Assembly (NCBI GenBank): GCA_030704615.1
Contig: CM060732.1
Location: forward strand, 37,882,001-37,946,000
DNA: 64,000 nt
Source of the DNA: Takakia lepidozioides
Lineage: Eukaryota > Plantae > Bryophyta
Direction of reading: 5' to 3'
Positions 20,831-48,229 of this stretch are shown one piece after another. Made by a program: the position numbers and the translations under genes. The notes below the pieces were generated by a model. That model searched no databases, had not been told where the DNA came from, and saw only the letters and a list, made by a program, of their open reading frames with translations. The stretch's first letter is position 1; each line of letters opens with the position of its first letter.

Positions 20831-23785
20831 TGTCAAGTTAAATAAGCACAGTGTGAAAACAACTAGAATAAAGCTAGTTATTTGTATTTAACACTTGGAT
20901 TTAGGTCAAGTGTTAAATCAGGTGTGAAGTTTAGTTTGACACCTGAACCGCCTTATCTTCACGAGAGCGGCAGTCGCGCAGCTCATCTCTCTCGAGTTGA
21001 GCCTGCGCGACCGAGCTCCTGCATCGTTTAGGACTGAGTGTGCTTATGATGGGAGTATAGGTTGTTGTGGGGTGGAGTCCCCATAGCTTGGGGTGCCCCT
21101 GGCTCGACTTCTGTTTTATTGAGTGATAGCGATGGATTTCATGTTGTTTCTGGTGTGAACAGTGTGTCTCTTAGCTTGTTCTATCACTCGAGAGAGATGA
21201 GTTTGCATCTGTGAGTGCAAGATGTGAGCTTAATTAGTTTTTAGCACTTGTGGGTTTTGTGTGAAGATGAGAGAGAAACACGAGGGTGCAATGGCAAGTT
21301 AGGCTTCTGTGTGTTGAAAGCGGTAACACGAAAGTGCATGGGTATTCTCCCTTTATAACGGTCACTGGCTGAGTGGCAGATTGAGAGCCGAGCATGGTGA
21401 AACGATCAGCATTATTGTTGTCTCGCAAGGCTGGGATGCAAGCCTTCATTGTCTTGGTGGTTAGAAGCGGAGGTGCAGCTGGTTACGCGAGTAGGTGGAC
21501 CGTGGTCTTCAACTTCAGCTGCAGAGATAAAAATACCATGCTATAGGTAATTCCTGAGCAGACTGATGGTTTCAGACCTGCACATAGTGAGCAGCCAAGG
21601 TGTTGGACTGGTTGATGGGCTCATGTCTACAAGTCGTCGTGCCAATGTTATATCGGTACTGATGACAAACGATTTGGTGAAGTTGTTCATGGCATATATC
21701 ATGGTGTGCAATCAGTAAAGGCCGAGTTGAGAAGTTGGCTGGCTATCGTTGGTTTTCTTGGTCAGCGAGCAGGGACAGGCTGGCATGAAGGCAAATTGTG
21801 CCGTCGTTGGCTTTCATGTGGAATAGTTACAGCAGAACCGGTGGGAATATTTGTAGTCAAATAAGATCAACAAGCAAGTGAGGCTTGGTGATTATGCTTG
21901 AGGAATTCGATCTTGGACTTGGACGGGTCTGTAATAATTTTTATAAAAAATCGAGCATGGATGAACTGGCCAAGTGGCGATGGTGCTGTCCTCGATTAGC
22001 TGTGGATTGCAATAGGACAAGGAAAGCAAGAATAAGGTGATGAAGGGGTGCAGACAACAACACCTAGTTCGGTTAAGGTCTCCAGGCCTCTTTGCATCCA
22101 TCAACTGTGTGGCTAGAGCCCATAAAGCTTGACTATAGCTGATGTTTTGTTAGAAGATATGGCTCGTAGCCTGCAGAAAACACAAATAACATTGCCATCC
22201 ACCACTGGGACTGCATGCTAGAAAGCCATGGAGGCGATGGCACCTGCTGTGTAGTTGCCAGTGCAGAAGAGGTTGAGGGAGAAGCCATGAAGCAGCGTCA
22301 GCCACGGTAGTTTGATCATCATCCTTCAACAAGTCGCTACATTCAGTTTCAGGCACTGCAGCAACGAAGTTGTTAACGCGGGCCTCTTTTACAACATTCG
22401 GACACTCAAAGAAATGAGTGACTGATACATGCTCATGCCGACAGGCAAGTGAGTTGGCTGAATGGATATCTGTGTCGCCTGAAACGCAAAGTGCAGCTAC
22501 ATCGTCCTTACAAGTGACAACGGCTTGAGCTAGCCCACACACCTCGCACATCCACACACGCCAGCTTGTTTATGCCATGCACCTTGTTATCGCAACCTAC
22601 ACACAAAAATGCTGCATCTGCCCTACAGTACATAGCCATGCTTGACGCATGACAAGACGTGTCTATGGTAGCCAGGCTTCCTGAACGAGGGAGAAGGACG
22701 CCGGTGCACGTTTGAGGACAGACAATCCCTGCACAACAACTCCCGAAGTTGAAGATTTCTCCAAAGAACGAGCAGCAATTGCCATAGTTACCAAAACGGC
22801 TGGTACAGTTGTAACGACCATGCTTGCAAGATCGCATCTCGGATTTAACGAAACAGGTTCGGGATGAGCTGACTCCCTTGTCATTCCTTCCAGGATTCTT
22901 GCTGTGAGTGCGATCTTCACATTCTATAAGGGAGGCCGGACGGAGTGGATCGTAGCCCAAGATATTTTCGTGCTGGGAGCTCAAAAATGTTGTTTATAGT
23001 GCAGAACTTAGAATTCGCAGGGAACCAGGGAACAGGGAACCAAGACGGATTATTGGAAATAGATTTTTCATTTGAATGACATATATTATGTTTAAAGAGC
23101 CTGTTTGGCCATAACTTTGTCATACAAAGGCTGTTTGACCTCAAATTTGCGCGAAGACCTGCAGATTGTGGAAATCTACATACTCAGACCTGGTTTTAGT
23201 TTTTTGGACTCTGCTAAAAATCTATGGAATTTTTTTGAGTGTGAGTGTGTGGATGCTATGAAAGATCCACAACTCTGTTTCAGCTAGAACCTGTTGTGGT
23301 CTACATGAGAGACAAGTTTGTGGATGTCCTCCTTGTATGGCTGGGGGCAATGAGGACGTAATTGAAGGGCATGTCTCTTCTCTTAGCCTGTGCACACACG
23401 GAGACAAGATTTATGTTTCTCAAGGAACTCGGACTGATTTGAGTGGAGAGCAGTTGGACGAGTTGATTGCATACTGGGAGTCAGGCATTAGCAATAGACA
23501 ACAAACTGCTATAGTTGGCGTTGAGGGCCTCAATATTGCTTTGGCCAGTCAGAACTCTGTTGGAGCAAGCAGTTCTGCAGCTGTAGATGACCAAAGTGGG
23601 TGAAAGCTAGGCTTGGAACACAGCCAAAGACAGCCCCAGGGACCAAGGTGTTCAGCCACAAGGCCGTGGTGTACTGGAGCAGAGGAGCAGGAGCTGCACA
23701 AGTTTGTGCAATCAGACATGGTTGCAGCCGGATACGCTCTACACAAGGCAACTACGAGCGGGGGTTCATTAGCAATGACAAGTTA
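20831..23785 (+). mobile_element. 5' end of a second copy of the DNMT-Gypsy family (LTR start, variable cassette, accessory ORF), truncated
   Basis: 20831-21220 (TGTCAAGTTAAATAAGCACAG...) is the reverse complement of ~46555-46944. 23050-23780 matches ~43690-44400, including the MAGGNEDVIEG ORF, which is frameshifted here near 23590. Confidence 0.9.
22270..22670 (-). pseudogene. Captured CONSTANS-like double B-box fragment
   Basis: [32 protein letters not shown] and [44 protein letters not shown]. There is a frameshift between the B-boxes and no CCT domain was seen. Confidence 0.9.
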
Positions 23786-23827
23786 ATTCTTTAGTGTTCC
23801 ATGAGCGGGAGATAGGGGAGTATTGCT

Positions 23828-28806: not shown

Positions 28807-28850
<44 letters not shown>

Positions 28851-28981
28851 GGTCTACAGGTTCCTCACTTCTTCAACAGCAGCATATCTACCATGCAATG
28901 CAATGCACACTCAGCCAGGCATCCAGTGCACCCAGCCTTGAAATCATCCTCGGTCACACAAGACATAACCATCCCATTCAT

Positions 28982-29029
<48 letters not shown>

Positions 29030-32000
29030 CCAATGTCCAACCCTTCACACTACCTTTTTCCAAAAGAGGCCATTGCCCAAACAGCTCTCAACCTTTCTAC
29101 AGGTTTCAACCAAATACCCCAACAACCCTCTTTTCCCTTCAACTGTGAACCTCAGTTGTTCATACCCTGAGACCATACTGGAATTCAGTTCCAAAAGCAA
29201 ATCAGTGTCGGTGTTGCTTCCCCATCCACATTATCCTTACTCTATTTTCAACAGTTCTAACTAACCCTCATTGGTGTATGCAATCAGGCAAGCTAGGTCT
29301 ACATTGGTTCCAGTGTACCAATACCCAGGGCAGCATTGTGTGCAGGTTCATAACACTGAAACAAAGAACAAGAATGAAGACAGACAGTGACCGTTCTGAT
29401 TCAGTGACAAGCAGTCTCTTCCCCCACTCATTTCTCCTACTGACACTATGACATCAGGTGCATCCATCTTTTCCCTATCCTGGTTTGAAGTCCAGAGTCT
29501 CCATTCCATTTCCAAAACCTTTTTCCTTCATCACATATCTCTACCTCCTTCTCTTCTACAAAGAGCCAGTCCTAAATCCACATCAAAACGATTTCTAAGT
29601 CTCCCCCCAAAAACCCCCGAAAACCGAAGCCCACAGTCTACGAACTTATCTGTTTTATCCTCCAGCGAAGCGGTGGATCTGCCTGCCAAGATGGCACCTC
29701 ACCATCGCCTGTCAGCAGCCACTTCAACCTATTCTCCTTGTCTTGATTCCAGTATTTATCATGCCATGATGGCTCCTCTTCATCCTATGGAACATCCTGT
29801 GGCTTGCCAACTAAATACTCTATCCTTCTATGCGTGCAATTCTTCCCTAAGAATTGACATGGTCCTATAGTAAGAAGACACAAAAGCAGCTATAAGCTTT
29901 GATTACAGATAACTTGAGTTGCCATCCAGCCAGCACTTCACATGCCTCATCTCCTCCATTGATTGTGCCCACAACTCACTTCCTTGTGCTTCCGGCAGCT
30001 GGCCGTTTTCCTTGCTTGCTCATCTGCCCATAACTGTTCTCTTCAAGTCAATGGCGACAGCGGTGGCGTGCTGCTCTTCTTACATGCTCCTACTCCAGGA
30101 ATTGATCATCACTACGAGAAAAGCGGCACCGCTTCCCTTTACACAGAATACCAAGCAGAAGCACTTAATGCCGCTCTCTAAACCAAGCAGAGTCCCATAG
30201 CGTAGGTACAACCTCCCAAAAACAGACTGCCCTGCCAACCCCACTGCTCCAGCAGCTGCTAAGAGTTGCCCGTCATCTTCCTCTTCGTTTTCCTCAACCC
30301 ACGTTTCTAGGTTAAACACCTGGGATGAAAACGTTCATCCTACGGATGAAAATACGCATGGTCATGACTTAGCCATTTTTATCCTGGCAAAGCATAAGCA
30401 CAGTATGCCCATGAAATTACCTGCATGCAGGGATATATCCCTCCTGCAGTTGTACCCGGGCACTCCCGTTGTAGTGATGCAGAATCTTAATGGTAAAACA
30501 AATTTTTTATGTCACTCCCCTGCATTCACACTACAGACTATCTTAGCCAAGATAGTACATAGTATTTTGTTGGTAGCCTCTGCCTGCCCATTACCTTGTG
30601 GGTAATACGTTCTACTCTTCCTATGCACAATCATGAACTCTTTAGTCAATAGATCAATGGTCTCATTAATGAAGTGACTTCCCTGATCACTGATAAATTC
30701 CAAGGGACAGCCAAATCGGGTAATTATGTTCTCATACAGGAACCTTGTTGTGGACTTGGCTGTGTTGTCCCTCAAAGCTTTAGCTTCCACCCACTTCGTA
30801 GTATAATCAGTGGCTGTAATTATATACTTGTTCTGCGTATTCTTGGCCGGTGGGTTAATTGGTCCAACAAAGTCTAGTCCCCATTTCTGAAATGGTTCAG
30901 TAGGCATCGTAGGATGCAAAGCCATCTTTCCAGATCTCTGCAAAGGTCCTAGCCTCTGACATTCATCACAACTCTGACAATACTTGTGTACATCTTTGAA
31001 CAAAGTAGGCCACCAGTAACCCGCAAGTAGTATCTTCCTACTAGTAGTCTCTTCTCCAAAATGACCTCCAGCCACTCCTTTATGAACTTCCTCCAAAACT
31101 TTATTCACTTCATGGTGGTACAAGCATCGTTTAAGTACTCCATCAGGTCCTAGCTTATACATTCTGCCCCCTACCATAGTATAAGGTAAAGCCTTGATAG
31201 CGATTCTCTTCCTCTGCTCCTTACCATAACTAGGTGGGCACTGACCATGAGTAAGGTAGTATCTGATTGGCCACTGCCAATCTAACCATTCATCTGCACT
31301 TCCTTGCACCTCCATTGCAAATAAACTCGCATCAGGTAATTGGTCGTCTACTCCTGTGGCGGCCTCTCCTGTTGTTAGGCATGACAAATGATCTGCCACA
31401 AGATGCAAACGGCTAGGCTTGTAAACAACTTCGAACTCAAACTCGTGCAAGATTATTAACCACCTCGTTATCCTTCCACTTATCAAAGGTTTGTTCACCA
31501 GATATATCAGAGCCTGGTGATCCACATAAAACATAAACTTTCTTCCCAATAGGTAATGCCTGAATTTCTTGACTGCATAAATCATTGCCAGTGCTTCTCT
31601 TTCAGTTGTGCTATAGTTCCTTTCAGCACTGTTCATCAACCTGCTAGCATAGTACACAGGTGAATCTATATTTCCTGTAACATTTTGGGCTAACACTGCT
31701 CCCAACGCTTCTCCTGAGGCATCACAGTGAACATGAAATACTACATGCCAGTGAGGGTTAATCAGCACAGGTGTAGTTGTTACTGACAATGTAAGTTCCT
31801 CAAAAGCCTGTTGACATTCAGCTGTCCATGCAAACACTGCATCTTTCTTCAGAAGCTTGCTCAATGGTGCTGCTATCTGTGCATACCTTTTGACAAATCT
31901 TTTGTAATAACTGGTTTGTCCAAGGAATCTCCTTAGACTCTTAACATTTACTGGTGGTGGTGAGGCTTTAATGGCCTCTGTCTTCCTGGGATCCATAAGA

Positions 32001-34735
32001 AGTCCTCTCTTACACACAATGTATCCCAGAAGCACCCCTGAGTTCACACAGAAAGTACACTTCTCTGGATTCAGGCCCAGACCTCTCATTCTGCATCTGG
32101 CCAAACATAACTCCAATTTATGCAAGTGCTCATTCTTAGAGTTGTACACACTGAAATCATCCAAGAACACCTGCATGAAATCATCTAGATACTCATGAAA
32201 AGATTCACTTATCACTCTCTGAAAGGTTGCTGGTGCATTACAAAGACCAAAAGGCATGACTTTGTATGCATAAGCACCCCAGTCTGTGATGAAAGCCGTC
32301 TTTCCCTTGTCTTCTTCTGCCACTTGCACTTGATTATAACCACTGAAGCCATCCATGAATGAGTACATCTCATGGCCTGCCACAGTGTCCAATACCGCTT
32401 CTGTGAATGGCAAAGGGAAAGGATCTTTCTTCGTGCAAGCATTCAACTCCTTATAGTTCACACAAACTCTCAGTTACCATTCTTCTTGGGAACTATCACA
32501 ATGGGTGACAACCAAGTTGTATACTCTATCGGGTATATAAACTTAGCCTCAGCCAACTTCTTGATCTCTTCTCCAACCTTTTGTGCATAGTTGGGATTCA
32601 TTCTGTACCTTGCTTGTTTGATTGGTACTGACCCTGGTTCCAGTTCAATCTTATGCTGACAGATCTCAGGTGGTATCCTTTTTAGATCCTCGCAGCTCCA
32701 AGCAAATACATCTTTGTATTTGATGAACAAACTCTTAGCTTCCTCAAAGAATTCTGGCTCCAAATCAGCCCCTACCTTCACCATCCTCGGTTCCTCTTCA
32801 GTTCCCACATTCACTTCTCTCACCTGCTCATCAGCTGTGATTGTCCAACCAGTCACCACTTCATCCTGTAAACTCACAGTGGCTGGTTCCTCTAGGATTT
32901 CCATTTCTCCTTCTCTTTCTTCATAAAAATGTGGTGGGTAACTGCTTATTTCTCCTTCAATTGGTGTTGCTGTCACTACACCACAACAGATACCTTTTAA
33001 ACAACTTAGGCCTTCCAGCTGCATCTCTGCAACCTGCTCCCACTCTAGGTGTGCAGCAAATAGGGTAGCTTCCTGCTCCTCATCCAGTCTTCCCCTCCAG
33101 TCATACTCCCTGACCCCTCAAGGTCTTCTCGTAGCAGGTAATCTACTAGATTTCTTAGTGGTAATTTGTATCTTGTGCATCCCCTTATGCACAGTTAGTA
33201 ACTGGGAATTCCAGTCATGGAATACCCTGGCCTGTTTCAGCCACGGACATCCCAATAATAAGGAGTAAGCCTCCATGACTTCATCCATTTTCAACACAGT
33301 TACTGTGATCATAAATATCATCTTTTGAATCTGTATCTTAACTCCTCTTATCAATCCCAATGGCTGTACACTTCTTTGATCTGCCATTGTTACTGTAAAT
33401 GGGGCTGGTTTCATGTTACTTAGACCAAGCTTCTGTCTTAATTGGTCTGTCATGATATTCACTCCAGAGCCTCCATCTATCAGTACATCAGTTAGTTCTG
33501 TGCTTCCAATTCTCAATTGGATTATTGGCATAGAATCATCAAAGTCCATGACTGTTTTTCGCCCTTCCGGCTTCACATTATAACTGGTCACCTTGTTGTT
33601 CAGGTCTGTGTTTCCTGTTGTCTACAATAAGGTGCCACAGCCAATAGCTGTCCAATGGTAATCTCTGCTTTGGACTGGCATATTACTTCAGCCAAAGTCC
33701 CTTCATTACTCTGCATGTCTGCAGCTTCTTTCTTCCCTTCATCCTCACTCACTTCCTCTTCTCCATCAGAATCAGAGGAATCTGCCATAGGAATATCAGT
33801 ACTCTTCTGCATTTCCCTTATGGTATCTGCCACTTCCTTGTGCAGTTCCTTCTCATCTCTCCAAGCCTCATCATCTTCAGGCACATCACTGCCATCTTCA
33901 TTATCATCATCTTCCTCAACCACTGGAGGTATTAGTTTGGCTTTGCTTCTTGTTACTATCATTGTACTTACTTTTGGTACAACACATGGCCTAACCATGT
34001 GAGCTGCCACCACTGGGCCCTCATTCACAGGAGCTCTCATCTCATTCTGGTGTCTGATCCAGAACAAACAGACTGCCTTGCGATGTCCTGGCTGATTACA
34101 ATAGTAACACAGTTCTTCACCATTGGGTCCTCACCCTTGGTCTGTTCTAGGATTATTTCTGTAATCCTGATTCCCTGGCTAGTAATTCCCCCTTGGATTA
34201 CCCTGATAGTTGGCCCTGGAATTTCATTGGTAATTCCCTCTTGGATTACCTCTCCCTTCCATACCATTGTTATAACCACCAGGCCTACCATAGTGGTCCT
34301 GATCACTGTTTCTTCTTGGCTAGGGCTGCACTTGATGCACCCTTACTTGCCTAGGTTCTGTAACTGCTGTCCTTCTGTTGTAGTAACAATTCTCAGTAGA
34401 ATGGTTATCCATTTTACAGATAGTACAGTGTTTCTCCTTCATGTGGCATTCAGTGGTGGTATGGCCTTCATTCTGACACTTTGCACACCAAACACCCTTC
34501 CTCCAATGTGTTGCAGCCTCTGTGGCATACTTCTTGAAGATTTCTTCTAATCTTTTCTCATAGTTATCCCTCTTCAACTTCTCTTTTCTCTTACTCTTCC
34601 TTTTCAGTTCTTGCTCTTCTTCTTCATCTGACTCATCCTCAGAGTCCTCATCATCCATTTTCTCTCTCCTGAGCATTCCCAATTGCTCAATTCTGTTAGC
34701 TCTTTCAAATGCCTCCTCCATTGTATTATGGGGTA
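27681..34735 (-). mobile_element. Ty3/Gypsy gag-PR-RT-RNaseH-INT, degenerate, integrase split by solo LTR 28269-30535
   Basis: gag CCHC knuckles (34100-34500), protease [28 protein letters not shown] and FLDD, RNase [10 protein letters not shown], integrase WGLDF, SDQG and GQAEATN, and C-terminal WKGPY. Confidence 0.95.
28269..30535. mobile_element. Solo LTR, TGTAGTGTGAA family, copy 2, with (CT)n tracts
   Basis: Termini TGTAGTGTGAA...TTCACACTACA with a 4-bp TSD GACT. Excision restores integrase ILAKIVNANRTDW. Confidence 0.92.
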
Positions 34736-35621
34736 ACATATCCGTGCAGCAGGATTTCGAATGGTGCAACGCACAGACATCCCGGCCCACGCATTTCCGG
34801 TTCCTCAGACCTAGCCATTGCAGACTGCTCGGTCCAGTAGAGACGGATTGGACAATTCTGCACATCCCACAATGCGATTCGGAAGAGTGAAGAGACAACA
34901 CCCTCCCAACAAGTTGAATGAGACTCGGATTGCCAATGCTCTTGGGATGGCTTGCACTATTCAGAGCTCCGTGGACGTACCCCCACCCGGCCTTGGGCGT
35001 GTGTATCGGATGGCAATGGCCGGCTCGGCTGTACGCGACGATGTATACCCAATTTACGATTGGAGTAGAGCCGACTTGCAATTGTACGGACTTCTCGTTG
35101 ATGGAAGCAAAGAAGGGTTCGAAGTATTATCCGTGCAAGCATCTGTATTACATTTACCTGAAGAGGTTGAGGATGAACGTGACTATTGATGACTTTATTC
35201 ATGCACCGGCGTTGAGCGTGAACGAGCTGCACAAACTCCTCTTTAGGGATTCCAGAAATCATTGATGGGGCAAAGGGAATCCTCCATATGGATATTTTCA
35301 ATTGCATTTTGCTGTATCAGACTTTTTTTTTGCAGTGTAATGAAATGCACCCCAAAACTCCTGGAATGAGGCAATATTCCATTCAAACTGAGATCTAACA
35401 GAAGCAGTTGTGGGGCCATTTCTGGAAAAATGGCGCCGAATTTCTCTTTTTGGGGCCGAAAACTGGCTAAGTCCCAACATGCACTGGTACCTGTGTCTGG
35501 GAAAATGGCGCCGAATTTCTCTTTTTTGGGCCAAAAACTGGCTAAGTCCCAACATGCACTAGTACCATGTCTGGAAAAATGGCGCCGAATTACCTGTCAT
35601 GAGGGGACCTATAGCCGCGGA
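34736..35621 (+). mobile_element. MULE-family fragment (SWIM ORF plus GGCGCC array), inverted homolog of 24170-25052
   Basis: PTCNCTDFSLMEAKKGSKYYPCKHLYY. AAAATGGCGCCGAATTTC repeats at 35425-35592. Confidence 0.85.
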
Positions 35622-36320
35622 AGTGTCTCTCTACACAGTATGTTTGTATCGATTCAGTATCAGATTAAGATTAATCATGTATCATGCCTATGCCATGGTG
35701 TCTCTATTTTATCTACTGTATAATTTTACAGCTTGCATGAACTAAGCCTCATTCAAGTCATCATCTCCTCTTCACTGTTTCCGCTCTCCGTTACGTCTCC
35801 TCCTCTCCTGAACAAGTCGCCCTCCTCAAGAAGTGATCCCCTTCCTGTTGCCGCTCTGCCTAATCTACCCGCAAGCTGTTCTAGCCACCTAACTAACTAA
35901 CCGTCACCCCTGAAGTAACACGTTCCCTCTACAAATGTCGTTCCCACACAGTCGTTCCCTGCCATTGATAACTGTTCCCCATGCACTGTGACAGGTTGTG
36001 TCAAGCTGTGCCGAGCTGTGACTGGCTGTGTAAAGCTGTGTCGGGTTGTGACTGGCTGTGTCTAGCTGTGATAGACCGTGACGGGCTGTGTAAAGTTGTG
36101 TCGGGCTGTGACTGGCTGTGCGAAGCTGTGTCGGGCTGTGTGAAGCTGTGTCGGATTGTGACTGGATGTGCGAAGCTGTGTCGGGCTGTGATAGACTGTG
36201 ACGGGCTGTGTAAATCTGTGTCCTGCCACCCCTAAGGCTCCTGTTGGTCTCAGTCTGCGCAAAAATTAAGGGTACCCCACAGAACCCATAAAAGCGTCTA
36301 AGTCCCAAGCAGCCCTCTAA
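35622..36320 (-). mobile_element. LTR/leader fragment with GGCTGTG (CACAGCC) tract
   Basis: Reverse-complement homology to 25815-26260 (e.g. GGGTACCCTTAATTTTTGC.CAGACTGAGAC). Confidence 0.75.
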
Positions 36321-38204
36321 CAGATTCATGGCACTCAAAGCCATTGGGGAAGACAGTATACATGGGGCATCGACGTTACCTTGCAAGAAACCACCCCTAC
36401 CGACGAGCAAGAAGGCACTTCAATGGATGTGTTGAAAGGAGAATGGCACCAAATGCTGTGACACCGGAGGAGACATTGCAATTTGCAAGAAAGAGGCATT
36501 CATAGAGATTGGAGGGAGAGAAGGAAGTAGTGCGGATCCAGCCATGGAGCACGGGGTGAAGCGCCGGACAATCCTTTGGGATTTGCCATACTGAAAGGTG
36601 CATGAATTCTCTCCCCCCCCCCCCCCCCATTCACTCACTTTCTTTCACATTGTGCATCCTGGAATTACCTTTACTGTCAGGAGTCCTTCCACCAACTCCT
36701 AAGTCAGTGTAACTACTATGCAGTAGATGTTGAAGTCATACACCTCACTGTGGAGAGGATCGTGCAGTTGTTGAAAGCAGAACGTAGTAACATGGACAAC
36801 TTCTGCCACATATTCTACTATTTTTGCCCATCTAACTTGGTCTCAATTGAGGACATCTGGCATTTCAAGACCTCTTGCAGCGGTACCTCCTGGACCCCAT
36901 GCATTGTGAGAAGAACTTTTGCGAGAACATTCTGAAGACGATCTTTGGGGAGAAGGATACGATAAACGTACGAAAGGACATGGAGATTTGTGAAGGTGTG
37001 GGATACGAGGGACATTACATCGTTGCGTGAGGATGTGGCTATGACCCTTTGTTTGTTGGAGAAAGAATTCCCTCCATCATTCTTTGACGTCATGATGCAC
37101 TTGCTAGTGCATCTTGTAGAGGAGCTGCATGTGTGTGAGCCCATAGCCAGCCATTGGATGTACCCCATGGAGAGGTACATGAAGGATCTGAAGGGGTATG
37201 TACGCAACATGGCACGGCCAGAGGGGAGTATGGTGGAGGGCTACATCCGCGATGAAGCCCTGGGCTTCATGACAGAGTATATGTCTTCATTTGATGCAAC
37301 ACAACGACGGGTGTGGGACGAGAATGAGGAAGAAGGAGTTGTAGGCGAGGTCCTAGAAGGTGGTGGAACAAAGCGTGCCATGAGCCCGCGCATTCGGGAT
37401 GTGGCACATGATTATGTGTTGAACAACACAACAACCATGACACCATGGAGACAGTGGTTGTAAACTTACATCCCTCTTGTGCTTTTCCTAATGGTCTTTG
37501 TATGCTGGAATTACCTATACTGTCACAAGTCATTCTGGCCAATATGGGAGTGGGATCGTGTACTAACAAGGTGCTTCAGACGACTACAGAGGGTGTTTCG
37601 TAGTTAGTGTTATTGCTTGCAAGTGATTATGAAGTAGGCTGCATCACTACAGTGTGCTTGAAAGGGCACAATCTGCATGTGGCATGCATGTACAGTACGG
37701 TGTTGGTCAGGGGGACTAAGTTGCAGCTTCTATTTGGTTTCTGCCAGAAAGTACGCAGTGGAGAAGGTCCGCCTAAAAACGGAACGGAGTGCATTTGCAA
37801 AAGCATGGCGGAGGGGCGGTTGTAGGCGCAGATCCCCGGTGGAGTACCCCACAACAATGGAGGAGTTGCAGCCCTTTGTAGTGTGGGTCAGATCTGCAGT
37901 TGCAGTGTACGCATCAGAGAACGAGGACCCAGATCAGGGCATGGTGAGTCTGTCATTCCCCCCGGGGTTGATTGCCACTTCGTACCGCTCAATGAAAGCT
38001 TATGGCAATCATTATAGAGTGGACGATGCCAACACCAGCCTCCTGGTGACTTATGACAGCGGATTGACATCATTTTTTGAACAAGAGAGTAGGAGCTGTG
38101 CACGAGATCGGAATCCAATGTCGTGCGCATACACATCGCTACACAACTACATCGCTGTCCAAACCACACCACACATATATGTACAATAAAGTAGTATACC
38201 ACAA

Positions 38205-38860
38205 TGGTGAGAAGGAGGCAAGTGATGCTTGCTTGCTGAACCTGTAGCCCATGGCTAACCAGGGTAACTGAAGGTCCCAATCTCCTAGGTGTCCCTTCTG
38301 CAAGCCATACTTGCGCAAACCCCTCTTTACTGTCTGAACAACTCTCTCTGCCAAGCCATCGGCCTCAGGATGATCCCGAGAAGTGGTGCGGTGGTCTATC
38401 AAGGCCTTGTCACACAAAGCCTGAAACTCCCCCAAGAACTCTCTCCCTTGGTCCGTGAGTACCTCAGCTGGAGCACCGAATCGGCTAAGCACACAATCCA
38501 AGAATGCATACGCAGCTCCCTCACTAGCCTTATCAGGCAATGGAACCAATTCAATCCACTTGGAGAAGTGCTCCACCATCACCAACACGTACTTGTTGTG
38601 GCGCATGGTCAGTGGCAACGGCCCTGCGAAGTCAAGACTCCACCTGTAGCCCAATCCCATGATCGGAAGAGGGTGCAATTGTGGAGTAGGGGCGTTGAAT
38701 GAAGCACGCACCCTGTCACACACCATGCACCTAGCCACAAATTGTTGCACCTCTGTGTGCATACCACGCCACCAATACTGCCCCTGCAGTAGGCTATGGG
38801 TGCGTCGCACCCCAAAATGCCCCAACTCCTCGTGGGCATGCCGCACTAACCGTGCCCGCT
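38205..38860 (-). CDS. Gypsy integrase (HHCC plus DDE core), C-terminally truncated
   Basis: AHEELGHFG...CMVCDR, WSLDF, LTDQG and GLAERVV. Confidence 0.92.
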
Positions 38861-41466
38861 GTGTTGACCTCGAGCACCTCCCACGTGTGCCATGGATGTC
38901 TACACCCCGTGGTCCTCACCGGCTCACCCCCACTCGTTGCCTGTACCGTCTCGGTAGGCAGAGAGACCGTCAAGGGAAGTGCACTCCGCACTCTACGTTG
39001 CTCAGCCATAGCCAAGCTGATAATCCAGGTCAAGCAATTGAGATCCATTGCTTGCCCCAACACCTGACGACGTGATGCCTCAGAAAGAGAAGGCACCGCC
39101 GTGGTCCCAGTGGAAAACCCCATAGCCCGCTCTCGCTCGTCGGCATTAGGCTCCACTAACTGCTGCAACTGAGCATCCCACAGGAGGCCAGGTCCACCAT
39201 CCCGAAAAGCATGGGAGCCTGGGAAGCTGAGCAATGTAGGTAATGCTGCTCGTGGGTGACCCATCCTGTTGACCACTGCCAACGGCGAACGGTCATTATG
39301 TCTCACACATTGAGACTGCCTCCCTGTGTCCAAAATGCCATCCACGGTGAGGTGTGCTGGGCTCTGCACCCCATCAAATGCACGCTTGAGCAGTGCGGGT
39401 GGCATCAAGTTAGTCCACCAAAGCCGTGGACGATGAGCCCGTGACCCCACTGCAGCTGCATCCAGCAACACTGCTGACCCAAGCCACGACCGGACTTGAT
39501 GCACACTGGCCATCACCCTGGCCCGAGAATCACCCATCAGTGGCACATTCTCCAAGATGTATGCCGGAGATACAGCCTGATGAAGCTGCAAGTAGCGCAA
39601 AATCCGCACCATCTCCCAAAACAGACCCGTCCTTGAGTCTCGCAATCCATTGCCATGCCCGGCTGATGAATGCCCTTGGCAGGGCCAACCTGCCACTACC
39701 AAATCAATGGAGCCAATCCGCTCCAAATCCTGCGCCCCCAGCAACGCAATGTCTGCTGGCAAGGCCTGCTGATATCCACGAACTGCAGACACCGGCAACA
39801 ACTCAGGGTACTGCTGCAGCATCTGAGCAACATGGCGCAGTGAGACGCGTCGTGCAGTCTCATCCCTCTCCACATACAGGTAACGTCGAACTCGTACATC
39901 TGCCTGCAACACTGCAGCCAATCCAGTGCTGATCCCGCCAAATAAGTCCAGAAGGCATATGCCTTGATCCGGCCGCTGCCACACAAGAGGTGTGGTGTCC
40001 AATGGCGACAACTGAGGTTTCCCTGGTGCAATCACCGCACTCTCCTCCTCTCCTGACGGTACAAAAGCTTCTACCCAAGCTTGTTGCACCCGTCTATCAG
40101 CAGCTTGCTGCAAATCCTTGCTCGTACCCCACAATGGGGTGTGAGCAACCATGGCAGGCAACTCCACCGTACCATGCATGTCATCCTGCTCTGCTGGAGG
40201 TGGCACATCCTCTGCATGGGCATTGCCTTCCAGCAACTCTCCAGGCCAACTAACTGCAGCTGTGAAGGCAGCTAGTGTTGGTATCTTGCCCCGCTGGACA
40301 GCTGCAATACCCCCAATGAATGTCACAGGGAGCTGTGCACGGCGACCATCCCCTGACTGCCATCCAGGCCTGTAGGATGCTGACTCCTCCCAAAAGTCTA
40401 GGGTGAAGCCCATGGGATATAATACTGCCCCACCAACGAGGACATCGTAAGAGATCGCGTCTGTCACAATGGCCTTGGCTCGCATCACTGAGCCATCTAT
40501 AGGATGATCCGGCTGCAGTCTAATGGCCAACTGATGCCGTGTCATGCCCCGAGCCTGCTCTGATCCTCCCAGAGATGTCTGTATCTGGAAATGACAAGGC
40601 TCCATATCCGCCTCCATGAGGCCCAAACCTGCAATAGCAGCTCTGCCCAACATCAGTGGCTGGGCTCCCGAGTCCAACAAGACCCGCAGTGGCCGGTACT
40701 TCTTGCCTGCCGGTCCACTCAAAGTGAAAATGCCTCCCTGGTTGTCTAACAAGACAACTCCAGGTGTCACTGTGGCGCGCTCAAAGGCTGGCCTAGCTGG
40801 CAGCTCCGTCAATCTGGCAGCTGCAGCTTGCCAGGGCGCTGCCGTGGCAGTCTTGACCCTCAAATCCGAGGATCCCTCTGCCACTACACCTTTCACTAAC
40901 TCCGCAGAAGATGAAGTGACCTCCCCACTCTCACAGAGTGTTGCTGCTAGTCTGAACACTGCAGCTGGTCTCACTCCCTGCATCGCAATCATGGTTGTCG
41001 AGAACAGTGGGGCTTGACACACAGAGGTGGCTGCTCCCAACAACACACCGGCTGCACTAGCCTTGGTAGCAGGTGTCAGTGCTGCACGTGTAGCTCTCCC
41101 CAATGGCATAGTAACCTCCGCCTCGGTAACAGTCGGGCGAGAACTAGGTGCCATGGATGGCGTCGACACAGTCTCCGCCAATGTGAATGACTGAGGAAGC
41201 CTCGCCTGACGGCTTGCCTCCCCACGCTGTGGATCCGATTCCACCTCTGCACCTCGTGGCTCAGGAACTCGTGCTGCTCCTCGAGTCACGGCTGCAGCAG
41301 ACTCCACCTGCTCTAGTGGTAGTGCTGCTCCGCACATAAATCCCATGCCTCCCATATCTCCTCCCTCAGGAGCAGGAGGTGGACCATCCCGCCTGGGAGC
41401 TGGTACCGCCTGAGCTATAGCCATGGCAGCGAGCCTCTGCTCTAGCTGTTGAAGCCGATTGGCCAT
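38794..41466 (-). CDS. Pol segment: aspartic protease fused in frame to a DNMT3-like C5-cytosine methyltransferase (domain ~39020-39965)
   Basis: 890-aa open frame. Protease LLDSGAQP at ~40660-40680. C5-MTase motifs: I LLDLFGGISTG, II YVERD, IV DLVVAGWPCQGHS, VI ILENV, VIII AHRPRLWWTNL, IX ERERAMGF, X RRQVLGQAM. Confidence 0.95.
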   Translation of the reverse strand: MANRLQQLEQRLAAMAIAQAVPAPRRDGPPPAPEGGDMGGMGFMCGAALPLEQVESAAAVTRGAARVPEPRGAEVESDPQRGEASRQARLPQSFTLAETVSTPSMAPSSRPTVTEAEVTMPLGRATRAALTPATKASAAGVLLGAATSVCQAPLFSTTMIAMQGVRPAAVFRLAATLCESGEVTSSSAELVKGVVAEGSSDLRVKTATAAPWQAAAARLTELPARPAFERATVTPGVVLLDNQGGIFTLSGPAGKKYRPLRVLLDSGAQPLMLGRAAIAGLGLMEADMEPCHFQIQTSLGGSEQARGMTRHQLAIRLQPDHPIDGSVMRAKAIVTDAISYDVLVGGAVLYPMGFTLDFWEESASYRPGWQSGDGRRAQLPVTFIGGIAAVQRGKIPTLAAFTAAVSWPGELLEGNAHAEDVPPPAEQDDMHGTVELPAMVAHTPLWGTSKDLQQAADRRVQQAWVEAFVPSGEEESAVIAPGKPQLSPLDTTPLVWQRPDQGICLLDLFGGISTGLAAVLQADVRVRRYLYVERDETARRVSLRHVAQMLQQYPELLPVSAVRGYQQALPADIALLGAQDLERIGSIDLVVAGWPCQGHSSAGHGNGLRDSRTGLFWEMVRILRYLQLHQAVSPAYILENVPLMGDSRARVMASVHQVRSWLGSAVLLDAAAVGSRAHRPRLWWTNLMPPALLKRAFDGVQSPAHLTVDGILDTGRQSQCVRHNDRSPLAVVNRMGHPRAALPTLLSFPGSHAFRDGGPGLLWDAQLQQLVEPNADERERAMGFSTGTTAVPSLSEASRRQVLGQAMDLNCLTWIISLAMAEQRRVRSALPLTVSLPTETVQATSGGEPVRTTGCRHPWHTWEVLEVNTAGTVSAACPRGVGAFWGATHP

Positions 41467-42868
41467 GCCTTGGTCAACACCCTGACCTCTGCGTCATTGG
41501 CCATGTGGAGCTTGCCCTTAGCCTGCACCTCGTGCCCGACCACCTCGTCCTCTTTGGGCTGGTCCACCTCGCCCCCGGCCACCATTGTTCCCTTGGAACT
41601 GGCCTGGGCGCAACTCAGGATGCAAGTCATAACACTGGGCATCTCCATGCCCATACTTGCCACAATGCCCACATTGCAACTGTGCAGGCTGTGCTTGTGC
41701 CGGCCTTTTGCCACTCTCTGGGCAATCTCTCTTGACATGGGGTCCTCCACATGTCCAACATATCACCCCTGGTTGCTGTTGGCCTGCAAAAGACACCACA
41801 GGCCTCTGCACTTGAGGTCCCCTGTAAGCTCCATGGAACTTGGGCTGGGCAGCCTTGCCCCCCTGACCACGCTGTTGGGCAGTCCCTTGTGCCTGTGGGC
41901 TGAAAGCTGTGCCCCGTGCAGGCATGTCCTTGCCAAATCCAATTGTAACAACTCGCTCCTCCACCATGTTGAGCTCAATCCGCTCAGCCAGCAGAAACAC
42001 ATCTGCTAATGTGGGTTGGGCTGCTTGTAACAGGGTTACATCTCGCACCCTTCTTTTGAGCTCCTTGTCCAGAATTCCATACCAAGCGCCTCATACGAGT
42101 GTACGCCTCTCGCAGGCTCTCACTGGGTTTGCGCTGGAAATCTTGCAAACTTCGCAGCTTCTCTGTCCGTACGCCTTGGTAGTTCCTCCGCAACTCCTGG
42201 AAGAACTCCACCACCGGGTTGAATCTAGGCACATGTGTTGTAGTCGTAGCAGGAGGAGTAGTAGCACCTTTTGAACTGGTACCACCTGCAGAAGCACCAG
42301 CACTACTTGCTCCACTACTAGTGCTGGCAGTGGGAGCTATTGGTACTGATGCAGCTACTGGTCGCGTCGTGCCTCAAGTAATGGAGACGTAGTCAGGTGA
42401 CCAATACATCCTCCACTCCTCAATCTCTGCTTCATGTCCTCGCCTGAACTCGTGGTAATCGTCCATAGGCGGGCCTTCCAAATGCTGGAACAGTCCCTTC
42501 CACGCCATGAATGGGGTGAATAGCTGTGGGTTGCGCATCTGCTGCAAATCACACCAGCTGTCGAACTCCTGGATAAAGTCATCCAACTCGATTGTGCCCA
42601 CAGCTCCAGAGTACCTACAAGGCCCCTTGGTAGCTCCATACATCTCCTCCATGTCGTCCCACAACAATGGCGAATGAAAGTGCACACCTGTTGATGAAGC
42701 CTCCAAGTCTGTGTCTGACTCTACAGTAGTTGAGGGTGGCGGTGAAGGTGGTCTGAACCGAATACCTCGTCTTGTGAACCCACTCTCACTGTTACTGCTT
42801 GTAGCCGTACTCCCCTCAAAACCCTTGGATAACTCCGTAATGACACTCACAATGTGCACCTCCTCCAA
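41467..42868 (-). pseudogene. Gypsy gag (capsid-like region and two zinc knuckles), with stop and frameshifts
   Basis: LQDFQRKPSESLREAYTRM, CWTCGGPHVKRDC and CGHCGKYGHGDAQC. Confidence 0.88.
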
Positions 42869-43387
42869 GTGACACTATAAGGCTCTAGTACTAATCTAAT
42901 AGTGACACGGGTGGGCACCTGTTGCAGTCTAAGGGTCATATCCCAATGGCTCAGGGCACCTGCACCTGCATCCACCGCAAGAACTCCTATGGTTGGCTGG
43001 TCATCAACCCAGCCTCACCATAGAAGAAACACTGGTGGTCTTGCTGGTCATCACTCCAGCCTCACCACCGACAGCATACTCTAGGATTGACCGGTGATCA
43101 AATCCGGCCTAATCCCTATGAAAGCAAGCACCCACACAAAACCAACATGGCGCACAGTCAAGCATGCAGGTGTTGGGGGGGATCCAAACACAAGAAATCA
43201 AAGCATCAACACCCCCACACCAAAATCCAGCAGCAACGTTGATCCTGCAGAATATCCCAGCCCAAAACCCCGGACTGACTGGCCTCCACCAAGAGAGGCT
43301 TTGGCAACTACGAGTACAAGGTAATGAAAATAGTACAGAGATGGAGGGGAAGAATAGAAGCCCGCCCAAGCAAGATCTAATCCTGAT

Positions 43388-44137
43388 CTATGCTATCAAC
43401 TTCCAGACTTCTCTCAAAGTGCCTCGCTCTGCGTGATGGTAAGGTGTAGGAGGTATATCTATGTCCAGAAACCTACCACTAACCTTGTCCCAAGATACAG
43501 TAGCTCGCTCTAACCAACCCTCCTCCTCTTTCTGCCAGGTAGAGACAAAGCAATACTCCCTTATCTCCCGCTCACTGAACACTAAAGAAAACAAAGGTAG
43601 GGTCTGATAGTCTCTCAACTCGAAAGCTTTGAGACGGTTGCGGGTGTCCTCATTGCGAATGAGTGCATCTCCTTCACGCACAACAAACATGTCATTGCTG
43701 ATGAACCCCCGCTCGTGGTTGCCCTGTGCAGAGCGTATCCGGCTGCAACCATGTCTGATTGCACAAACTTGTGTAGCTCCTGCTCCTCTGCTCCAGTACA
43801 CCACGGCCTTGTGGCTGAACACCTTGGTCCCCGGGGCTGTCTTTGGCTGTGTTCCAAGCCTAGCTTTCACCCACTTTGGTATTTCACCTACAGCTGCAGA
43901 ACTGCTGGCTCCAACAGAGTTCTGACTGTCCAAGGCAATATTGAGGCCCTCAATGCCAACTACAGCAGTCTGTTGTCTACTGCTAATGCCTGACTCCCAG
44001 TATGCAATCAACTCGTCCAACTGTTCTCCACTCAAATCAGTCTGAGTTCCTTGGGAAACATAAATCCTGTCCCCTTGTGTGCACAGACTAAGAGAAGAGA
44101 CCTGCCCTTCAATTACGTCCTCATTTCCCCCAGCCAT
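43388..44137 (-). CDS. Accessory 249-aa ORF upstream of gag, unknown function
   Basis: Intact ORF in the sense of the element, with a near-identical frameshifted copy at 23337-23785. Confidence 0.7.
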   Translation of the reverse strand: MAGGNEDVIEGQVSSLSLCTQGDRIYVSQGTQTDLSGEQLDELIAYWESGISSRQQTAVVGIEGLNIALDSQNSVGASSSAAVGEIPKWVKARLGTQPKTAPGTKVFSHKAVVYWSRGAGATQVCAIRHGCSRIRSAQGNHERGFISNDMFVVREGDALIRNEDTRNRLKAFELRDYQTLPLFSLVFSEREIREYCFVSTWQKEEEGWLERATVSWDKVSGRFLDIDIPPTPYHHAERGTLREVWKLIA

Positions 44138-45109
44138 GCAAGGAGTACATCCACCAATTTGTCTCTCATATAGACCAGCACAGGTTCTAGAGACAGGATT
44201 GTGGATCTTTCATAGCACACTCACACTCTAAAAATTCCATAGATTTTTAGCAGAGCCCCAAAAACAAAAACCAGGTCTAGATAGGTAGATATCCCCTTTC
44301 TGCAGCTATCCCCTCAAAAACTGAGTCAAACGGAGCTCATTTGACAAAGATATGACCAACCAGGCTCTTTAAACATTTAAATTAGATCAAAAGGCCATTT
44401 TTTTTTCTTTTTTTTTCTTTTTTTTAAAATAAATTTTTATTAACACCAAAACGTTCTTGCCATTAAAAGCTGTTCCCAGGTTATCTACGGGTTCCCGAGG
44501 CCGTTCCCCTCCAGGTCTATGCCAAATCAAGCTGGTGTCGAACAACGCTCAAGTACTGGGGTTGTTGGGTCCTTCTGATCCTCACTGCGATCCTGTGTCT
44601 TCAGTGCTACTTGCTTCTTCTTGCGTGCTCGCTGCCATGGACGCCCTGCATCGTCTCCTCACTATGCCACACAACGTCACTCCAATGGCTGGGGATGCTT
44701 ATACATGCGGTATGAGGTCTTTCCCACATGTATTGATGTCTGTTGGGATTTAATATTTTGAAAGAGGTACTCAGGATTGAAGACCCAAAGTGCTTCTATC
44801 TCGCCTCACCAACAGCCGACTCTACTGCCTGCAGCAACTCTCACACCAGCAGGGCTTGTACCCGCAGGCCCTTGTCTCAAGCGAGCCTCCAGCACACTGA
44901 ATAGCGATATCGCCAGCTCTCTCTCTCTCACATAGAGCAGGCAAGCGCTTAGCACCATGGTTCAGCGGCTCACCTGCCGCAAACTCGCGTTGTAAAGACG
45001 TCAGGTGGAAGGCTTGTATTTCAAACCGCCAAGAAGTGGGCGAAAGGTCCCAAATGCTCCATTGTCACGGACCAGCTGCAACCTGGCCCCTCGTTGCAAG
45101 CTTCTACAG

Positions 45110-45320
45110 GACTTGGGGACACATAAACCTCCCACCGGCGGCCATTCTCATTGCGACTGGAATGGGGTCATCTGCAACAGCCCCCTGCTGCCTGATTGTC
45201 CTGTCGCATTGTTGCTGGAGGGCTCAACCCAAGCACAGAGTCGGAAGGAATGTCACCAGGCTTCACACCAACTTACTACCAGAAGGAAGGATCTCAGCAA
45301 CAGAGAGAGGGTTGGGTGGC
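45110..45320 (+). pseudogene. Captured LRR N-terminal cap fragment (LRR-RLK type)
   Basis: HCDWNGVICNS at 45149-45181 fits the C.W.GV.C LRRNT motif and is followed by V.LLL. The match is short and degenerate. Confidence 0.5.
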
Positions 45321-46067
45321 GAGAACCAGACCTCCACCTTCCAAACGCTACAATGGTTCGGCCTGGGGACGGAGAGAGCTGGGCACTGCTTGCCACCCTC
45401 TCTGCCTTTCTGCCTCCTTCAGCTTGACGGGCGACTCATACGTAGCATAGAGAGCGAAGCAAATCGACCCCAAAATGACAGAGGTTGTGTGCCATTACAG
45501 TTCGCTGTCTTTGCGCCCGCTCACGACATACAACTGATGAAATTTAACAGCTATCTTGAGCTCAACTGAGAAGAGGTAGAGTCACCGCGAGTTCTTCAAA
45601 ATTATTCTCCCACAGTTCATCAAGAGCTCATCCCAGTCTCACATTCTTTAGGATGCCCTACAGACTTGCAGATTGATGCAACCCTGCACAAAACCTCCGC
45701 ATGTCTACACCGTCTGCAGTAATTACCTCTCTGGCTTTCGGAGCGCATGCGTGCAAATCAGCGCGACTCCCTCAGTCTCTCAGTCAGAAAAGACGAAGTC
45801 TTCACAGTCTCTACTCGGCATCCGCCTTCCTTTGCCCATAGGGTATGAATGCTTCTTTTTGTTGTCTTCCAATGAGATACTTTGCAAGAGTTTAGTTTCT
45901 TCTTGCATAAAGCGTAGGAAACGCAGACTGCAGTTCACAAGCACTAAGCTCGCCACATAAACAGAATCAGTTTCAAGAAACATGGCATGAGAGATACAAG
46001 ACACTGGTCTTCGATTCAAATGTCGGGCACTGCTTTTCCTCTGCTCGAGAAGAAACGAGGACCCACT

Positions 46068-46300
46068 TTACCGCTGCTGGTGCTGGATTCCAATGAGCAC
46101 CTTTAGCATGTCTTGCATGGAGGGGCGTCTATCAGGCACCTCGTGTGTGCAAAGCATGGCCATATCCATCAGCTGCAGCAGCTGCTTGTCAATACATGTG
46201 GTCTTCAGCAGGTTCACATCAAGAACTTGCCTGTCCAGCTCTGGCTTCGCCAATGCTTGCCGCACCCACTGTGAGCTGTTCACGCCCTCACTGACCAGAA
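46068..46300 (-). pseudogene. Captured receptor-like kinase C-terminal fragment (subdomains X-XI)
   Basis: WVRQALAKPELDRQVLDVNL...QLMDMAMLCTHEVPDRRPSMQDMLKVL. Confidence 0.85.
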
Positions 46301-48229
46301 CGAAGGCTGCTTCCTCGTAGTATAGCTCCGTCCTGCCCCTGCGGCCTCATGCCAGAACCAACGCTATCCTTACCAGTGGAAAGACACCAGTTCTTTGCCC
46401 CTGCTTGACATGCTGCCTGCCTCCATGGACCATCTATATACCCAGAAACCAAAGATGATCGAAACCTGCATGTTTTTTTTTGTTTTTTTTTTTTAAAGCT
46501 TAAACTAAGCACTACTTCACAGAGGTAATCATACAAGTGCTAACCCTCAACTCCTACCTTGCACTCACAGGTAAGAGGTTATCTCTCTCGAGTGATAGAA
46601 AGGCTCTTTAACACACTGTTGACACAAAACATGGAAACCAAAATCATCACTCTTTGAAATAGAAGTCGAGCCAGGGGCACCCCAAGCTATGGGGACTCCA
46701 CCCCACAACAACCTACACTCCCATCATAAGCACACACAGCTTCTAAACGCAGGAAGGAGCTCAGTCGCGCAGGCTCAACTCGAGAGAGATGAGCCACGCG
46801 ACTGCCGCTCTCGTGAAGATAAGACGGACCAGGTGTCAAACTAAACTTGACACCTGATTTAACACTTGACCTAAATCCAAGTGTTAAATACAAATAACTA
46901 GTTTTATGCTAGCTGTTTTCACACTGTGCTTATTTAACTTGACACCAATTTCATGCCCTGTGTAATATGTAGGAGTCATCAAAGAGATCCTTAAAGTAGA
47001 CTATGGTCTTGTGAAGCCAATTCTATTCCGTTGTTCTTGGGTAAAAGCCAATATGGTGGGAGAGAATGCCACCATGAAACGGGATGAGTACGGGTTCCTC
47101 CTTGCTGATTTCAGAAAAATGCTACCATCAGATGAAGAGCCATTCATCTTCCCATCGCAAGTTGAGCAAGTTTTCTTTTCAGATGACACCCAAGCGCCGG
47201 GATGGAAGGTGGTTCTTCACAAGGACCCTCGGGCCAAATGAGTCGTGGCCGACATCCATGATCTGGACCTAGGGGAGAATGCCGACCACGAGGGTCTGAG
47301 GGAACCATGAAATCTACCAGATACGGCTGAACCAGTCTGTTTGGAAGGAGCAGTTACCTTTAATGAGGAAGACATTCCAGGGTTGGTAATTACCGCAAGG
47401 CAAATTGCAGATGTGGGTAGTGAAGGGGAAGATTCTTTGGATACGGATAGTGAGCCCAACTGAATCTCAGTGTCCATTAAGCTGGCAGCTCTTAGATGAG
47501 AGCTGTGCTAAGGACTCTTACTGTCCTTAGAACCCATTTTGTACAGTCCTACAAGTGCGCAAGGGCGAGACAGTTAATCGTATCGATAATGTCCCGGAAT
47601 GTGGTCCGTATTGACTTGTGAACAAACCTATATTTACTTGCCAATACTGTTTTTGATATGTGAGGAGAGGATCGTGAATGTGTGCATGCCTTTTCTGGCA
47701 CATCTGCATGCTTTCCAGGAACAAAGACCAATGGAATGGGGGGTGTCTCCAAAGGAGCAGGACCGGACGACATCTTTTTGTGCTTCCTTTGCTTTCCTTT
47801 TCACCATTGCTACATTTTCCCACCTGCCCAATAGTAGCACTCTCGAAGCAATAGCATGACATATGTTGCAACATGGTCTTCTTCACCAATGAAGGAGCTT
47901 TTTGCTACATGTACTGCCACGTCCGCATTAACGTTGATCCCTGCAAGCACTTGGCAAGACCCCCCAGAGCCGCAGATCCAGCAACCACCACACACACATC
48001 TAACTGATTGTAGTGAGATGTGAATAGCTCACTTGCAGAGGAATTGAACCTCCAGCCAAATGAATGGCTCTGCCCCTTGCAGCACAAGTGTGATGCAAAA
48101 ACAAGGTGAGTACCAAATGAAGAAGCACTTACGAGGTCCCCATCCCTCGGATGGGCTCCTACTTTTGCGGAGGAATTGTGCAGGCCTGACCAACACCAAA
48201 TTGCATGAATCCTAACCCTGAATGTCAAA

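Follow-up and report, generated by a model that had tools for sequence, protein, structure and literature searches.

We analyzed a 64,000-nt window of the genome of the moss Takakia lepidozioides (contig CM060732.1), in which a Gypsy-type retrotransposon carries a DNMT3-like DNA methyltransferase (DNMT) domain. All coordinates are window positions, and the element lies on the (-) strand. It occupies 38119-46944 as a single insertion with TGTC..GACA ends, and the 4-bp target-site duplication (TSD) CCAA is present on both flanks. The insertion interrupts a CACTA transposase frame, which reads on across the empty site once the element is removed, in agreement with the TG..CA ends and 4-bp TSD given in an initial annotation of this DNA. 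Many dissimilar contigs have a loose end at position 38119. The features of the window are collected in Table 1.

Table 1. Features of the element, its insertion site and other parts of the window
Feature	Position	Strand	Basis or remark
Second, non-coding relative; same repeat A and leader, different passenger (B-box piece 22511-22993)	20831..23827	+	
Decayed CACTA transposase (DUF4218, DUF4216), host of the insertion	36966-38114 and 46949-47238	+	
TSD CCAA, left copy	38115..38118	.	Flank comparison
Repeat B, 87 bp, element 3' end, terminates GACA	38119..38205	-	Aligns with B of L019, L059, L036, L046
Integrase zinc finger and core, open; C-terminus, PHD finger and polypurine tract deleted	38206..38866	-	PF17921 E 2.6e-16, PF00665 E 1.7e-14
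Deletion junction: end of ORF1, reverse transcriptase and RNase H missing (about 2.0 kb)	38866..38867	-	Loose ends, bridging contig
DNMT3-like C5 cytosine methyltransferase domain, open, all main motifs, intronless	39013..39999	-	
Aspartic protease, DSG at 40674-40666, shares the DNMT frame	40330..40755	-	
gag, zinc knuckle at 41673, three stops and a frameshifting deletion; 3' half in the protease-DNMT frame	41494..42652	-	
Open leader frame, 273 codons	43391..44209	-	Partly common to second copy
Low-copy passenger DNA flanked by two A-rich tracts	44440..46470	-	Depth drops several hundred-fold
Primer-binding-site-like segment directly after repeat A	46581..46593	-	13/14 bases pair with 46778-46793
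Repeat A, 352 bp, element 5' end, starts TGTC	46593..46944	-	Common to 20831-21221; end set by pairing segment
Predicted self-primer, likely transcript 5' end	46778..46793	-	Pairing with 46581-46593
TSD CCAA, right copy	46945..46948	.	Flank comparison
Glycosyltransferase family 61 (GT61) gene, three exons	57357-60215	+	Protein matches

The open reading frame (ORF) at 38797-41493 (-) comprises 899 amino acids (aa) from stop to stop, or 890 aa from an ATG at 41466, and joins the gag tail, the protease (PR) and the DNMT3-like domain; its last 23 codons are out-of-frame integrase sequence. The motifs follow one another in canonical order: protease LLDSGAQ at 40680, then DLFGG at 39948, AGWPCQG at 39693, ILENV at 39558, AHRPRLW at 39438, ERERAMGF at 39138 and RQVLGQAMD at 39069. 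We take DLFGG, AGWPCQG, ILENV, AHRPRLW and RQVLGQAMD to be motifs I, IV, VI, VIII and X, and the set expected of a DNMT3-type C5 methyltransferase, I, IV (PC), VI (ENV), VIII, IX and X, is complete. A motif-complete methyltransferase in an open 890-aa frame had been the central observation of the initial annotation, and it is confirmed by the ORF, the motif positions and the suggested search with PF00145 (E=3.3e-12, 46.9 bits against a cut-off of 22). The Pfam match of the protease is below threshold (E=0.012), and the domain is 61-74% like the Marchantia domain in moss-type loci.

The likeness to DNMT3, initially drawn from motifs, extends to both sequence and predicted fold. The closest PDB sequence is DNMT3A (E 9e-10), followed by DNMT3B, DRM2 (5e-5) and HhaI (5e-4), and an AlphaFold model (predicted local distance difference test score 83) retrieves DNMT3A/B as top fold matches (E 1.5e-16, template-modelling score 0.65, 19-22% identity). 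A DRM identity was rejected, since DRM enzymes are expected to have a permuted motif order and the motifs in the window are canonical. As judged by the sequence and the model, the domain is DNMT3-like and a predicted DNA methyltransferase.

The copy itself is dead, internally deleted and non-autonomous. Traced from 42652 by alignment to Marchantia proteins, gag is interrupted by three stops (42374, 41518 and 41494), and near 42084 a deletion shifts its frame. In runs X1 and X5, same-family contigs terminate on either side of 38866/38867, and contig X9/24, from another species, spans this junction with 2,017 extra letters. At 38205/38206 the integrase (IN) loses its tail; contig X8/20, from a run that may consist of RNA and was not taken as a sign of expression, has 869 more letters there (at 38204/38205). 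With gag broken and reverse transcriptase (RT), RNase H (RH) and the integrase tail gone, the copy cannot replicate on its own. The DNMT adjoins the integrase only because RT-RH is deleted, so that the initial placement of the domain between gag and integrase is correct in outline, but its family position is between protease and RT. Likewise, the contrast between an open DNMT frame and a broken gag was rightly observed, but the openness is no sign of current function in this copy. We also considered whether the host might keep the PR-DNMT frame open as gag, RT and the integrase tail decay. Such domestication would fit the distribution of point or small lesions, with 4/4 in about 1.2 kb of gag and 0 in about 3.3 kb of PR-DNMT plus integrase core, as well as the in-frame ATG; however, the lesion count is small and was picked post hoc, the integrase core is likewise open, and the copy lies within a dead CACTA element in repeat-rich DNA, its natural C-terminus lost. 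We therefore regard domestication as very unlikely.

Relatives of the element are numerous. A protein search returned 67, led by Calypogeia and Marchantia (65-74% identity) with Sphagnum next; the name Klebsormidium was absent among the relatives returned by the protein searches. From metagenomes we took the best 80 of 307 confirmed matches, as loci fetched by their DNMT. The domain order in relatives is gag-PR-DNMT-RT-RH-IN-PHD, which includes the Gypsy hallmark PR-RT-RH-IN with a DDE integrase, and in the 80 loci PR lies upstream of the DNMT in 59/63, and RT downstream in 55/60, of those with sufficient flank. Pfam scans detected the rve integrase and no tyrosine recombinase, and the integrase is followed not by a chromodomain but by a PHD finger (P0051, P0090 and loci). 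The depth profile, which is not DNMT-selected and is a relative profile rather than a copy number, gives comparable summed depths for gag, DNMT and integrase in runs X1 and X5, and several hundred-fold less over the passenger DNA. Based on these observations, the DNMT is a family trait and not the one-off capture that the initial annotation had kept in view, and the family is abundant in mosses and liverworts, with the window copy a broken member. The full-length order sought in the genome is thus found in the metagenome loci, and the proposal of a Gypsy element with a DNMT3-like domain in a land plant is upheld by moss and liverwort relatives. Some Marchantia gene models, e.g. Mp_4g09160 and Mp_8g17980, are element copies, and some of these are labelled DNA (cytosine-5)-methyltransferase.

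In a quick DNMT tree (68 rows picked from the matches, without host DNMT3, supported by the Shimodaira-Hasegawa-like approximate likelihood ratio test (SH-aLRT) only), the window domain falls within an SH-aLRT 100 clade with Marchantia, Calypogeia and Sphagnum domains, and the integrase tree agrees in shape at lower support. The 17 loci from IMG/VR are all distant (23-50% over parts) and served as outgroup only. A sister group with the order RT-RH-DNMT-IN-PHD (P0090, P0219 and about 70 more proteins) forms a DNMT clade of its own (SH-aLRT 97); its DNMT follows RNase H, so the domain has moved position within one lineage. This group includes a Scenedesmus pol, and the DNMT-bearing Gypsy system thus extends beyond streptophytes. 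Closterium has the order PR-DNMT-RT.

A recent retrocopy of host DNMT3, or algal contamination, had also been named as possible sources of the domain. The best solved relatives are indeed DNMT3 enzymes, the tree contains no bryophyte host DNMT3, and host plant DNMT3 (PpDNMT3a/b) shares the canonical motif order and DNMT3-type fold (PMC6453930). The host enzymes, however, have introns and a C-terminal DUF3444 (PMC6453930), whereas the window domain is a single frame that matches PF00145 only, and its nearest relatives are the element-borne liverwort and moss domains of the SH-aLRT 100 clade. Against contamination, the GT61 gene of the window, with its three exons, has its nearest counterparts in Sphagnum and Physcomitrium and marks the DNA as that of a bryophyte, likely a moss: the best matches (proteins >520 aa, 5 matches) come from Sphagnum, Physcomitrium and Riccia, with the long exons 49-55% like the first two and 41-48% like Riccia. 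Either source appears extremely unlikely.

We analyzed constraint on the DNMT through the ratio of nonsynonymous to synonymous substitution rates (dN/dS), as the initial annotation had advised. It is 0.11-0.15 between the window and 13 moss-type loci, at a dS of 1.8-2.4 that is near saturation, and 0.11-0.14 in three unsaturated pairs. The integrase gives 0.02-0.07, and constraint on the DNMT is the weaker of the two. In decayed copies the DNMT and integrase values are 0.50 and 0.31 for subfamily 1, and a second comparison gives 0.27 and 0.32. Among 178 full domains from green algae and bryophytes, the catalytic PC is kept in 146-167 and ENV in 165, and RxR in most. As judged by these values, the DNMT3-like domain is under purifying selection.

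What the enzyme is kept for is less certain. Methylation of the element's own cDNA, proposed for the algal relative (PMC5890265) and, after putative release of the enzyme by the element protease, in the initial annotation, would be consistent with the retained catalytic residues, and we regard this role as evenly balanced between likely and unlikely. Alternatively, the DNMT might be kept for binding nucleic acid in the particle, or, in concert with the PHD finger, for methylating host chromatin or copies already integrated. The position at the end of Gag-PR would suit a structural function, the constraint is weaker than on the integrase, and the one Klebsormidium domain assayed yielded no methylation in yeast, an outcome that its authors call inconclusive (PMC5890265); yet most domains retain the catalytic Cys, ENV and RxR, and the Dnmt3 domains borne by DIRS elements methylated CG (PMC5890265). 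Taken together, these points make another role somewhat unlikely.

Placement of the DNMT within the polyprotein bears on how much of it would be made. The stop survey covers 39 loci chosen for DNMT and RT being in frame, and in the groups nearest the window a stop occurs at one place after the DNMT in 23/23 loci. Its context is TAR-CAR in 13/13 contexts listed, three of which fully match UAG-CAR-YYA, a plant-virus readthrough signal (PMC3542737), and many database proteins terminate 65-143 residues after motif X. The conserved stop and these protein ends suggest that most of the product is likely Gag-PR-DNMT, with RT-IN made in smaller amounts. The DNMT, initially placed inside Pol, is therefore part of the polyprotein as stated, but in the nearest subfamilies it ends the Gag-PR frame ahead of the stop.

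The terminal repeats are arranged in an unusual manner. No pair of long terminal repeats (LTRs) was found in the window for this element; whole relatives have, instead of two terminal LTRs, the layout A-coding-G tract-B-NN-A-B, with the G-rich tract, a polypurine tract (PPT), directly before the first B. B-A-B follows the coding region in L032, L048, L059, L062, L064, L066/67, L070, L076 and L091, and a 4-bp TSD is present in 6/8 loci having both ends. The B-to-A junction reads GACA-NN-TGTC, with the spacer GC in 5, AC in 4, GT in 2 and TC in 1 (n=12, four TG-spacer rows excluded as chance matches), most copies have an exact A-to-B join, and each end of the element corresponds to one half of GACA-GC-TGTC. 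The AC and GT spacers would be the expected deamination products of a methylated CAGCTG. In the window's own family, contigs join 46942 or 46944 to 38119 or 38123, which is the same end-to-start junction. The ends of the element, initially read as those of LTRs, are thus split repeats A and B. Seven loci (L024, L025, L034, L049, L057, L083 and L095) stop at the first B, with the form A-coding-B where the 5' end is present, and one of them, L034, has a 4-bp TSD; these copies may have arisen either by B-B recombination or by insertion of a 1-LTR circle.

A candidate priming site lies directly after the first A. Nothing convincing resembling a tRNA-type primer site was found near gag, and no TGG-type site follows the first A. 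Instead, 13/14 bases at 46581-46593 pair with 46778-46793, a score matched by 0/60 shuffles. We surveyed 26 sequences from three families of unlike sequence: the bases after A pair with an 11-14 nt segment about 155-188 bp into A in 19/26, at least 13/14 bases pair in 13/26, and no shuffle reaches the score in 15/26. The exceptions are five subfamily-1 copies, whose best pairing lies at another place in A, and two copies of subfamily 2 without signal. Both arms differ among the three families, so that their complementarity has been maintained through sequence change. A TATA box lies about 30 bp upstream of the self-primer in two moss-type families. We infer that this self-complementary pair replaces the tRNA site and would support self-priming of the kind known from Tf1 and Tj1, which have the same arrangement (PMC4600332).

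Because the primer site follows the first A and the PPT precedes the first B, reverse transcription would duplicate the unit B-GC-A. We propose that: (i) self-priming and otherwise ordinary reverse transcription would yield a linear cDNA whose LTR is B-GC-A; (ii) the cDNA ends would be joined into a 2-LTR circle, with A|B as the join point; and (iii) the DDE integrase would cut the GACA-GC-TGTC palindrome with a 2-nt stagger, producing normal CA ends. The integrated form would then be a circular permutation of the 2-LTR circle. Abundant Gag-PR-DNMT, with RT-RH-IN-PHD made through readthrough, would place many DNMT copies in each particle, where the enzyme may act on the cDNA or the circle before integration. 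In IS3/IS911 circles and at retroviral circle junctions, a DDE enzyme opens the circle at abutted ends a few bases apart; here, by contrast, the cut site would sit inside the LTR, away from the join of the cDNA ends. LTR circles are usually regarded as dead ends, whereas the arrangement of the repeats suggests that here a DDE retrotransposon integrates from them.

Copying of the DIRS/PAT type from a B-A-B transcript, or another strand transfer, could instead supply a linear, A/B-ended DNA that integrates without a 2-LTR circle. The layout equals that of split-repeat DIRS elements (PMC5890265, Fig. 4 legend), and a single permutation is seen, the other (a B before the first A, giving A-B-A-coding-B) occurring in 0/25 loci. 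On the other hand, the positions of the priming site and PPT make B-GC-A the LTR and place the last B beyond the part that is reverse-transcribed, the 2-bp spacer inside a CA/TG palindrome suits an integrase cut site, and the seven loci ending at the first B fit an opened 1-LTR circle (B-B recombination also fits). We consider DIRS-type copying decidedly unlikely, and integration through the circle route, as deduced from the arrangement of the repeats, likely.

Overall, we consider it quite probable that the window holds a deleted copy of an abundant bryophyte gag-PR-DNMT-RT-RH-IN-PHD family with split repeats, whose constrained DNMT likely methylates its own cDNA and which likely integrates from circles. 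Several observations weigh against this interpretation. No circle was observed, and the absence of the A-B-A-coding-B form is an unexplained asymmetry. The KnitGypsy-Dnmt3 domain produced no methylation in the yeast assay, called inconclusive by its authors (PMC5890265). Loci selected by DNMT are unable to reveal DNMT-less copies, the window-to-moss dS is near saturation, and in decayed subfamily 1 the DNMT ratio exceeds that of the integrase. No TATA box before the self-primer is evident in the window. The post-DNMT stop falls in the deleted part of the window copy and is known from relatives alone; in subfamily 1 an ATG two codons past the stop allows reinitiation; and the second moss-type subfamily has a shared stop in 0/16 loci, so that Gag-level DNMT is not universal. 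A more far-reaching version, in which one lineage from chlorophytes to mosses and liverworts opens its 2-LTR circle inside the LTR, packs DNMT3 at Gag stoichiometry and methylates cDNA before insertion, is rather unlikely; in its boldest form, methylation would shield one of the two GACA-GC-TGTC sites and explain A-coding-B-A-B as the sole product.

The closest known system is KnitGypsy-Dnmt3 of Klebsormidium nitens (de Mendoza et al. 2018, PMC5890265), which is described as having an intronless Dnmt3-like domain in a Gypsy polyprotein, A-coding-B-A-B DIRS-like repeats and purifying selection. The present family differs in its land-plant host and its abundance, in a comparison made by description, and the accessible text of that paper makes no mention of a self-priming pair, a palindromic B-GC-A site, a post-DNMT stop or a PHD finger. 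SymbioDIRS-Dnmt3 and split-repeat DIRS elements also combine Dnmt3 in a polyprotein with A-coding-B-A-B repeats (PMC5890265), but use a tyrosine recombinase, whereas the bryophyte family has a DDE integrase, TG..CA ends and a 4-bp TSD. In Tf1/Sushi elements and plant Tcn1, the bases that follow the 5' repeat can pair with a stretch inside it, which takes the place of a tRNA site (PMC4600332, PMC6317226); these elements have two ordinary LTRs and a chromodomain, in contrast to the permuted repeats, PHD finger and DNMT found here.

Outside Klebsormidium we found no literature on a land-plant Gypsy-DNMT or split-repeat Gypsy, in a search that did not cover most subscription papers, Repbase, figures or bioRxiv supplements; two later papers say 'streptophytes' without detail in their accessible text, and the supplements of PMC5890265 (3 files) and PMC12344493 (1 file) contain no Marchantia or Sphagnum. 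The kind of element is thus known from Klebsormidium, and what is new is the land-plant range together with the permuted-LTR anatomy, the self-priming pair and the post-DNMT stop. Retrotransposon-borne DNMT3 is thereby widened in range from one alga to land plants, and since copies occur in Marchantia polymorpha, for which methylomes, mutants and transformation exist, the role of the enzyme becomes testable. In bryophyte annotations, the DNMT frames of the element raise the apparent number of DNMT genes, and without an LTR pair the family would be missed or mislabelled by LTR-finding pipelines.

Among the remaining features, the leader frame of 273 codons matched nothing in Pfam, the metagenome loci or the collected proteins; it is 86-90% alike in the second copy, until a frameshift and deletion. 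The passenger DNA differs at the same leader position, with a kinase-like tail in 44440-46470 and the B-box piece in 21230-23080, and two window copies with different passengers at one place suggest that the family captures host gene pieces. We take the passenger piece at 46071-46346 to resemble a receptor-kinase C-terminus; Pfam gives no match to it. CpG and CHG ratios gave no interpretable separation of the element from other window DNA. At 27578-35126 (-) lies an unrelated Gypsy element that has RT, RNase H and integrase but lacks a DNMT, and a tRNA-Leu(CAG) call by ARAGORN within it, at 28649-28746 (+), is probably spurious. Larger inverted repeats, at about 24168-26568 and 34947-36322, surround the CACTA element.

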